Of a stretch of DNA of 64,000 nt, positions 27,061 through 27,972 are shown piece by piece. The notes beneath the pieces are model-generated. The model saw only the letters and a list, made by a program, of their open reading frames with translations, was not told the origin of the DNA and did no database searches. The stretch comes from Klebsiella phage RCIP0020, in sequence record OR532814.1; one strand, 5' to 3'. How positions within the stretch are numbered: the stretch's first letter is position 1; the number at the start of each line of letters is the position of its first letter. A program made the position numbers and the translations under genes.

Positions 27061-27972
27061 CTATGCAAGCGCTTTTTTGATTTGTTTTGCAATTGCTTCG
27101 ATCACCGGAACAGATACAGAGTTACCCGCTTGTTTGTACGCCTGTGTTTTGCTCTTATGCATCTTGAATGAATCCGGAAATCCTTGCAACCGGAAACACT
27201 CGCGAGGTGATAACATTCGAGGGTTCTTACCTTCCTGCAATACCAGACATTGAACACCATCCTTATAGTATTGGGCTGTTATCGTCCCAGTACACACAGA
27301 ATCAACTGTAACGGCCTGATAGCCAAACCCCTTACCGTTTGCCTTGTTTCGTTCTTTACGCTCTCTAAAGCCCTTCCAGGCACGATCTGATATGGTGTAT
27401 TGATCATTATCCGGTTCGAGAATGTCACCGACCCTTGTTGGGGTACGTGGAGGAACAGGAAAACTAAAGAACACCGGATCGCGAAAGCAGACAATAAACA
27501 CGCGCTCTCTTCGTTGAGGCAATCCAAAATCTTTTGTATTCATTACCTGATAATGGATATCGTACCCTTCGTCCTGTAACAGCCTGTAGATGGTTTTAAA
27601 CGTGTTTCCCTTGTCATGTGTTAATAGCTGGGGAACATTCTCAAAGAACAGCACAGAGGGCTTTTTAGCCCGTATAATGCGGAGTATTTCAAAGATGATA
27701 GTACCGCGAGGATCTAACATGCCCTGTTTTAACCCTGCTTTACTGAACGCCTGACAAGGAAACCCCGCCAACAGGATATCGTGATCAGGTACGTCGTTTT
27801 CATCAATGGCGAATATATCACCCTGAATATTTTCATCACCCCAGTTATCAGCATATGTTTGTTGTGCATGTTTATCGATTTCAGACGTTAAAAGGCATTC
27901 GGCCCCGCCGAATGCCTTATCGAAACCGAGCCTCACGCCACCAACACCAGCGCAAAGGTCAATTATTTTCAT
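27061..27972 (-). CDS. DNA (cytosine-5)-methyltransferase
   Basis: Canonical C5-MTase motifs. Motif I IDLCAGVGGVRLGF. Motif IV GFPCQAFSKAG. Motif VI FFENVPQL. Motif VIII QRRERVFIV. Motif X-like QAGNSVSVPV. Confidence 0.85.
   Translation of the reverse strand: MKIIDLCAGVGGVRLGFDKAFGGAECLLTSEIDKHAQQTYADNWGDENIQGDIFAIDENDVPDHDILLAGFPCQAFSKAGLKQGMLDPRGTIIFEILRIIRAKKPSVLFFENVPQLLTHDKGNTFKTIYRLLQDEGYDIHYQVMNTKDFGLPQRRERVFIVCFRDPVFFSFPVPPRTPTRVGDILEPDNDQYTISDRAWKGFRERKERNKANGKGFGYQAVTVDSVCTGTITAQYYKDGVQCLVLQEGKNPRMLSPRECFRLQGFPDSFKMHKSKTQAYKQAGNSVSVPVIEAIAKQIKKALA

Follow-up and report, generated by a model that had tools for sequence, protein, structure and literature searches.

An intact DNA cytosine-C5 methyltransferase gene in a T4-like Klebsiella phage without hydroxymethylcytosine machinery

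The methyltransferase gene and its conservation

The 64,000-nucleotide stretch of Klebsiella phage RCIP0020 analyzed here (sequence record OR532814.1; hereafter the window) carries on its minus strand a gene for a DNA (cytosine-5) methyltransferase. The features that define this gene are as follows.

27061-27972, minus strand: orphan DNA (cytosine-5) methyltransferase coding sequence, 303 amino acids (aa); open reading frame (ORF) with an ATG start and the stop codon inside the end coordinate
27754-27756, minus strand: codon of the catalytic Cys73 (motif IV, GFPCQ), read from the sequence and aligning to Cys81 of M.HhaI
27223-27477, minus strand: target-recognition domain, residues ~166-250, of Dcm/SsoII type (GKGFGY...TITAQYYKDG), between motifs VIII and IX

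The family assignment extends over the whole protein. PF00145 matched with E = 3.1e-95 and 319.8 bits (cut-off 22), spanning profile positions 1-324 of 324, and TIGR00675 matched with E = 4e-97 and 325.8 bits (cut-off 100.65). The preliminary description of this DNA had called the gene a C5-methyltransferase, and the full set of diagnostic motifs was located in the canonical order: motif I (DLCAGVGG, residue 5), motif IV (PCQ, residue 72), motif VI (ENV, residue 111), motif VIII (QRRER, residue 153), motif IX (RECFRLQGFP, residue 257) and motif X (GNS, residue 283). The best relative of the full protein in the PDB is M.HhaI (E = 8e-70, residues 2-300), with which it aligns residue for residue; M.HhaI ranks first overall because the catalytic domain is shared.

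The window is 99.2-99.8% identical along its whole length to Klebsiella phage phi1_146007 (PP889462.1), with 100% identity over 4 kb in the methyltransferase region, and 98-99% identical to Matisse, to KP27-like phages and to many further Klebsiella phages, i.e., to members of the genus Slopekvirus (the KP15/KP27/Matisse group) in the family Straboviridae. The methyltransferase agrees at 301 of 303 residues with P0122, a cluster member that has KP27 AEX26604.1 among its listed accessions, and the 90% protein cluster also contains proteins of Enterobacter and Citrobacter phages. RB16 and Cronobacter phage SemperBestia have orthologues at 83-84% identity, and about 170 phage records hold full-length copies at 80% identity or more. 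Thus, the gene is conserved in Klebsiella Slopekvirus, with orthologues in RB16/RB43-type phages (RB16p119, RB43ORF127c). In RB16 the synteny is the same, the methyltransferase gene adjoining the nrdC.11 homologue. Against the RB16 orthologue (84% aa identity) the rate of synonymous substitution (dS) is 1.33 and that of nonsynonymous substitution (dN) 0.109, i.e., a dN/dS of 0.08, and the gene is under strong purifying selection. The intact motifs, this low ratio and a position kept across two genera together argue strongly for what would be a working enzyme.

No cognate restriction endonuclease of the EcoRII-C/CCGG family was found in the neighboring ORFs (26724-27002, 27969-28235, 28226-28471 and 28468-29475), and no nuclease or Vsr domain lies beside the methyltransferase in the flanking ORFs as searched with Pfam, PHROGs and PADLOC. 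Since the neighboring ORFs lack a restriction enzyme, the methyltransferase is an orphan. The gene is therefore described here as that of an intact DNA cytosine-C5 methyltransferase, and it resides in a T4-like Klebsiella phage without hydroxymethylcytosine (hmC) machinery, as set out below.

Absence of alc and of the hydroxymethylcytosine network

The first part of the window covers the interval between gene 63 and pseT.

1-2279, plus strand: gene 63 (3′ part), spanin, spanin, small ORF and pseT, with the alc slot empty (ORFs, PHROG and tblastn)

Gene 63 ends at 609 and is followed, after a gap of 8 nt, by a pseT.3-like i-spanin gene (618-929), a pseT.2-like o-spanin gene (926-1240), a 58-aa ORF (1225-1398) and pseT (1395-2279). 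The order in T4 is rnlA - alc - pseT.3 - pseT.2 - pseT.1 - pseT (NC_000866). The preliminary description had taken alc to be missing here, and the interval indeed holds only the two spanin genes and the one small ORF. An Alc-like protein hidden in the interval was considered and rejected: the ORFs are the spanins and a member of a PHROG without known function, and tblastn with T4 Alc returned no match in the window at E ≤ 1e-3, the best match in PP889462.1 being at E = 2.3.

To cover the remainder of the hmC network, T4 proteins from NC_000866 were compared by tblastn with the assembled PP889462.1 genome (174 kb) and with the window. In PP889462.1, T4 gp42 (dCMP hydroxymethylase) matched only the thymidylate synthase (24% identity, E = 3e-5), and alpha-gt, beta-gt, Alc, DenB and Arn gave nothing better than E = 0.2; none of these six proteins was found in the window either. 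PP889462.1 retains homologues of the T4 proteins gp56 (46% identity), Dam (55%) and DenA (31%), and also has PseT, gene 63, PseT.2 and PseT.3. A phage of the pseudo-T-even kind with ordinary cytosine (dC) and with DNA methylation, as the preliminary description proposed, is supported by this result, gene 42 and the glucosyltransferase genes being absent from the 99%-identical genome, and by the agreement of published work. Its wording of an "unmodified-cytosine genome" holds for the lack of hmC; "unmodified" goes too far, because a subset of cytosines would be expected to carry 5-methylcytosine (5mC) and the GATC adenines N6-methyladenine (6mA).

The gene and its implication for dC are already known from publications of 2006-2021. 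A list of 2006 already had RB43ORF127c as a C-5 methylase (PMC1524935). For KP15 and KP27, Dam and Dcm genes were described in 2013, along with a lack of genes for gp42 and glucosyltransferases (Kesik-Szeloch et al., 2013; PMC3620542), and a table of 2016 gives the Dcm gene for every "Kp15virus" member (Maciejewska et al., 2016; PMC5219037). Nikulin and Zimin, 2021 described C5 methylases in the Tevenvirinae groups without modification genes (PMC8056088). DNA of KP15 and KP27 is reported to be cut by ordinary restriction enzymes (PMC3620542, PMC5219037), and the distribution of alc is that of gene 42 (Petrov, 2010; PMC2993671). The absent hmC network, the normal cutting of KP15/KP27 DNA and the tracking of gene 42 by alc therefore support a dC genome with a probably active C5-methyltransferase as the right reading. 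The increments of the present analysis are modest, i.e., an assignment to the SsoII/NlaX type rather than to true Dcm and a measured extent of the palindrome purge.

Three further observations concern the proxy genome. The homologues of gp56 (dCTPase/dUTPase) and DenA (EndoII) lie at 63975-64511 and 93675-94040 of PP889462.1 though gp42, alc and denB are absent; such retention of denA and gp56 homologues without the hmC pathway is tabulated in PMC2993671 (Table 4), and their tolerance by a dC phage is a point raised in PMC8056088. Between the homologues of gene 41 and gene 61 (66573-67571) there is a third methyltransferase-like gene of 332 aa, with weak Pfam matches to MTS (E = 3e-5) and N6_Mtase (E = 5e-4, just below its cut-off); the KP15/KP27 papers list Dam and Dcm only and do not mention it (PMC3620542, PMC5219037). 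In addition, ~390 bp of PP889462.1 (record 129608-129999), corresponding to most of the 93-aa hypothetical gene KLCOBNDS_CDS0209, are absent from the window at ~35033-35038, beside the thymidine kinase gene.

Recognition domain, restriction sites and predicted target

When the recognition domain alone (residues about 174-269) was compared with the PDB, Dcm came first (3lx6/3me5, E = 7e-9) and HhaI reached E = 0.12. Relative to the domain of M.Ecl18kI, the phage domain is gap-free and identical at 44 of 85 positions, and the phage methyltransferase as a whole is 53% identical to that of pECL18 over residues 2-302. The restriction enzyme of pECL18 was verified as R.Ecl18kI (PDB 2fqz, E = 2.6e-203), the target of which is CCNGG (PMC2577355); the best plasmid matches include 4-6 kb enterobacterial plasmids, i.e., pECL18 of E. 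cloacae and pKPN2 of K. pneumoniae, with the same system on both. In Hafnia and Haemophilus aegyptius, chromosomal homologues with 59% identity adjoin restriction enzymes of the EcoRII-C family, for which Ecl18kI is the nearest relative of solved structure, and these homologues have a recognition-domain core nearly identical to that of M.Ecl18kI and a domain type in common with the phage protein. Among the 59%-identical homologues, P0036 is labeled 'nlaX' in its source; M.NlaX itself, according to its published description, is a delta(1-71) M.SsoII occurring in nature, shares the CCNGG specificity and is 41% identical to M.HhaI (PMC3978073). The phage methyltransferase failed the NCBIfam model for the Dcm subfamily (NF007772/PRK10458), scoring 195.4 bits against a cut-off of 710 and covering profile positions 90-454 only, so that "Dcm" is a loose label for it. 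Judged by sequence, the phage enzyme is an NlaX-like single-domain orphan in the SsoII/Dcm recognition-domain group, and its recognition domain is not of the HhaI type. The enzyme is predicted to target the inner cytosine, either in CCNGG or in the CCWGG subset only. The short recognition site of the preliminary description is thus about right, although the total length of 303 aa, from which it had been deduced, does not by itself establish this.

The phage clade has a version of the domain that is its own. The bacterial SsoII-type core reads GYGLF...YTNTISARYYKDGSEILIEQ, compared with GYQAVT..CTGTITAQYYKDGVQCLVLQ in the phage clade; conserved scaffold residues are G, Y, T, T, I, A, YYKDG, L and Q, and the changes include R to Q and SEI to VQC. 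Because these substitutions are specific to the clade, the exact specificity is a matter of prediction.

Site statistics were taken from the 174-kb proxy genome. Hexamer palindromes are absent in 24 of 64 cases (likewise 24 of 64 in the window alone), compared with 10 absences among 2016 non-palindromic hexamer pairs, and the missing non-palindromic hexamers are for the most part fragments of degenerate palindromes, e.g., GGWCC, CCWWGG and CYCGRG. Counts are 1 for RCCGGY, 2 for YGGCCR and 0 for both CCWWGG and CYCGRG. GGWCC occurs only twice (observed/expected ratio, O/E, 0.01), whereas CCWGG occurs 284 times (O/E 1.45); GATC occurs 1151 times (O/E 1.78) and CTAG 87 times. The window, RB16 and T4 were also compared on stretches of ~50 kb, the first 50 kb in the case of the window. 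GC4 hexamer palindromes are absent in 14 of 24 cases in the window and 17 of 24 in RB16, and in 2 of 24 in T4, which contains hmC. The corresponding counts of GATC, CTAG, CCWGG and GGWCC are 299, 27, 72 and 0 in the window, 248, 15, 78 and 4 in RB16, and 55, 67, 44 and 33 in T4. RB16 thus shares the site pattern of the window, whereas T4 does not. Selection by type II restriction against sites lacking protection, with methylation as a shield for GATC and CCWGG, would be expected to produce this pattern. Nothing specific on Slopekvirus methylomes or on a purge of palindromes was found in the literature, in which the only site loss mentioned is a lack of HindIII, NcoI and PaeI sites.

The reading that we consider probable is that of an active orphan C5-methyltransferase in a dC T4-like phage, targeting CCNGG or CCWGG and acting against restriction beside Dam and the site purge. 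Several observations weigh against it. CCSGG is depleted (46 sites, O/E 0.33), which fits CCWGG-only protection better than CCNGG; the depletion could alternatively come from overlap with the avoided CCCGGG, CYCGRG and RCCGGY. The phage domain reads TITAQYYKDGVQCLV where SsoII and Dcm read TISARYYKDGSEILI, at positions that are otherwise conserved. The reach of the site argument is limited because GATC and CCWGG are also marked by the Dam and Dcm of the host. DNA of KP15 and KP27 resists EcoRII despite about 280 sites (PMC3620542), yet host Dcm blocked EcoRII on KP36 too, a phage without a cytosine methyltransferase gene (PMC3620542), and the published resistance does not discriminate because host Dcm confounds it. 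Finally, the whole-genome statements were made on PP889462.1, a 99%-identical proxy for the phage of the window itself.

The same enzyme, in the same role, might have a strictly Dcm-like CCWGG specificity rather than CCNGG, a possibility that we hold tentatively. The contrast of CCWGG with CCSGG in the Slopekvirus genome, which RB16 repeats, the recognition-domain motif in common with Dcm and the literature, which names the gene Dcm and reports resistance to EcoRII (PMC3620542), all point that way. The domain, however, is as long as that of M.Ecl18kI, without the 16 residues inserted in Dcm, the overall identity of 53% is to M.Ecl18kI, the score against the Dcm model is far below its cut-off, and the nearest bacterial relatives are paired with Ecl18kI-like restriction enzymes, not with EcoRII- or PspGI-like ones.

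Drift of the recognition domain away from the SsoII/Dcm consensus, to a site other than plain CCNGG or plain CCWGG, would be unlikely; in that case the methyltransferase, together with Dam and the purge, would make up an hmC-free anti-restriction strategy, and the GC-containing sites left abundant would be only those that the phage can methylate. Quite doubtful, too, is another short site, either GCGC as for M.HhaI or a new site arising from divergence of the domain in the phage clade. M.HhaI is the best overall match in the PDB, GCGC is not avoided (492 sites, O/E 1.46) and the clade-specific substitutions include R to Q in SARYYKDG. Likeness in the catalytic domain is nevertheless uninformative on specificity, since M.NlaX/M.SsoII are also 41% identical to HhaI (PMC3978073). 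A GCGC specificity was rejected, given the match of the domain alone to Dcm ahead of HhaI and the absence from the genome of both GGCGCC and GCGCGC, which would be unexpected were GCGC protected. Protection specific to TCCGGA/CCGGA was also considered, 94% of the CCGG sites being preceded by T or followed by A, and was dropped in favor of the simpler account of a joint avoidance of RCCGGY (1), CCCGGG (0) and CCSGG (46).

A separate observation concerns KP27, the DNA of which is reported to resist EcoRI, NsiI, SnaBI and DpnI despite many sites, unlike that of the near-identical KP15 (PMC3620542, PMC5219037). This resistance is not accounted for by Dam, by the methyltransferase or by anything in the window. 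It may, as a more remote possibility, reflect a further modification in the genus.

Gene neighborhood, proposed role and known systems

The methyltransferase lies within a run of small minus-strand genes, for which two further features are relevant.

27969-28235, minus strand: 88-aa ORF upstream of the methyltransferase (phrog_7342), its stop overlapping the methyltransferase start (ATGA, gtATGAaa)
30978-31014, minus strand: candidate terminator hairpin and sigma-70-like promoter (TTGACT-18-TATATT, with TG), from a consensus scan only

The 88-aa ORF has no Pfam match, and the ATGA overlap suggests translational coupling in an operon of small genes. The candidate terminator/promoter stands at the head of the run, and the promoter-like site may drive the methyltransferase. 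Just upstream of the operon partners are an RlaP-type nucleotidyltransferase gene (28468-29475, minus strand; PF10127), the RB16 counterpart of which is labeled nrdC.11, and a gene for a phage ProQ-C-like protein (29475-29852, minus strand; PF24203); these two domains suggest RNA repair or RNA binding.

Elsewhere in the window there are auxiliary genes of the RB43/KP15 type, all on the minus strand (31018-32076, 32253-33179, 39319-40662, 44656-45858 and 22945-25161). The set includes a bifunctional cytidylyltransferase-like/NUDIX protein, the RB16 counterpart of which is labeled NMN adenylyltransferase/NUDIX hydrolase, an SPFH/Band-7 protein, a PIN-PhoH protein, a 738-aa vWA-domain protein and a SPASM-domain protein annotated as an Fe-S oxidoreductase or radical SAM protein. 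Further along, a 175-aa protein (50523-51050, minus strand) has a DUF262/GmrSD_N domain (PF03235, E = 7e-19; PADLOC NsnA, PD-T4-2_A) and spans only the N-terminal half of phrog_1583; its RB16 equivalent is RB16p168. The 304-aa ORF downstream of it (49612-50526, minus strand) is without a recognizable domain, and the two could be a split or truncated gene for a modification-dependent nuclease-like protein in a dC phage.

In the chemistry of the C5-methyltransferase family, S-adenosylmethionine is bound at motifs I-III, the cysteine of the PCQ motif attacks C6 of a flipped-out cytosine, and the methyl group is transferred to C5. In the phage enzyme, Cys73 would be the attacking cysteine. Most likely the enzyme protects CCNGG or CCWGG sites from restriction, a specificity predicted from the recognition domain. 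Expression would fall in the early or middle period, from the operon of small early-type genes, and the inner cytosine of CC(N/W)GG would be methylated at C5 on replicating phage DNA, perhaps more rapidly and more fully than by host Dcm. Nucleases of the SsoII/Ecl18kI type (CCNGG) and of the EcoRII type (CCWGG), carried on small plasmids in the host genera, would thereby be blocked. A C-5mC dinucleotide is not an R-5mC site and should not attract McrBC, as an HhaI-type mark would. Together with the phage Dam (GATC) and the near-total purge of other type II palindromes, the methyltransferase would replace the hmC/glucosylation strategy of T4.

Methylation might serve mainly other ends, i.e., shielding of the DNA from the phage's own DenA- and gp56-linked functions, or regulation of gene expression or packaging. 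The retained denA and gp56 homologues are in keeping with such a role, and the shielding idea was raised explicitly by Nikulin and Zimin, 2021. The DNA of a Dcm+ enterobacterial host, however, has the same CCWGG mark, which would make for a poor distinction of self from host, and the contrast between protectable sites and unprotected palindromes is a prediction of selection by type II restriction; we therefore regard this explanation as highly unlikely. It is scarcely credible that the gene was captured from a bacterial restriction-modification system and is now a passenger, silent or in decay: it sits in a variable region of small genes beside the nrdC.11 homologue and its nearest relatives are bacterial restriction-modification methylases, but its catalytic motifs are all intact, its dN/dS is low across two genera and its position and synteny are conserved in more than 170 genomes.

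If the anti-restriction role holds, this branch of T4-like phages with ordinary cytosine would defend its DNA by site-specific methylation and site avoidance, not by hmC and glucosylation. The consequences would extend to phage therapy, i.e., to host range against Klebsiella carrying plasmids of the SsoII/Ecl18kI or EcoRII type, to laboratory handling, in which it matters which restriction enzymes cut the phage DNA, and to sequencing, where nanopore or bisulfite data should show 5mC signals.

Among known systems, the 'Dcm methylase' of KP27/KP15 (AEX26604.1/YP_007348760.1), RB16p119 and RB43ORF127c are the same gene, with no material difference. The published label 'Dcm' for the KP15/KP27 gene implies a CCWGG target and orthology to E. 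coli Dcm, both of which are presumed. M.HhaI (GCGC) has the same catalytic fold and motifs over the full length, whereas its recognition loops are not conserved in the phage protein. The Dcm of E. coli/Shigella (CCWGG; PDB 3lx6, 3me5) has the same type of recognition domain, and the EcoRII-blocking mark would be common to both enzymes, as predicted for that of the phage; Dcm, however, is longer (472 aa), being extended at the N-terminus and carrying 16 inserted residues in its recognition domain, and the phage protein has neither feature. M.Ecl18kI/M.SsoII (CCNGG, inner C), the methyltransferases of plasmid-borne type II systems of Enterobacteriaceae that occur in the host genera of the phage, resemble the phage protein in their collinear GKGFGY...YYKDG...NPR motifs. 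Unlike these, the phage protein has no partner restriction enzyme and lacks the 71-residue N-terminal helix-turn-helix regulatory region, the alignment starting at residue 73 of the 379-aa plasmid enzyme, and its recognition domain is substituted at several positions that are invariant in the bacterial enzymes of this type. M.NlaX of Neisseria lactamica (CCNGG), compared here by its description (PMC3978073), is a single-domain protein of ~310 aa with the architecture of the phage protein.

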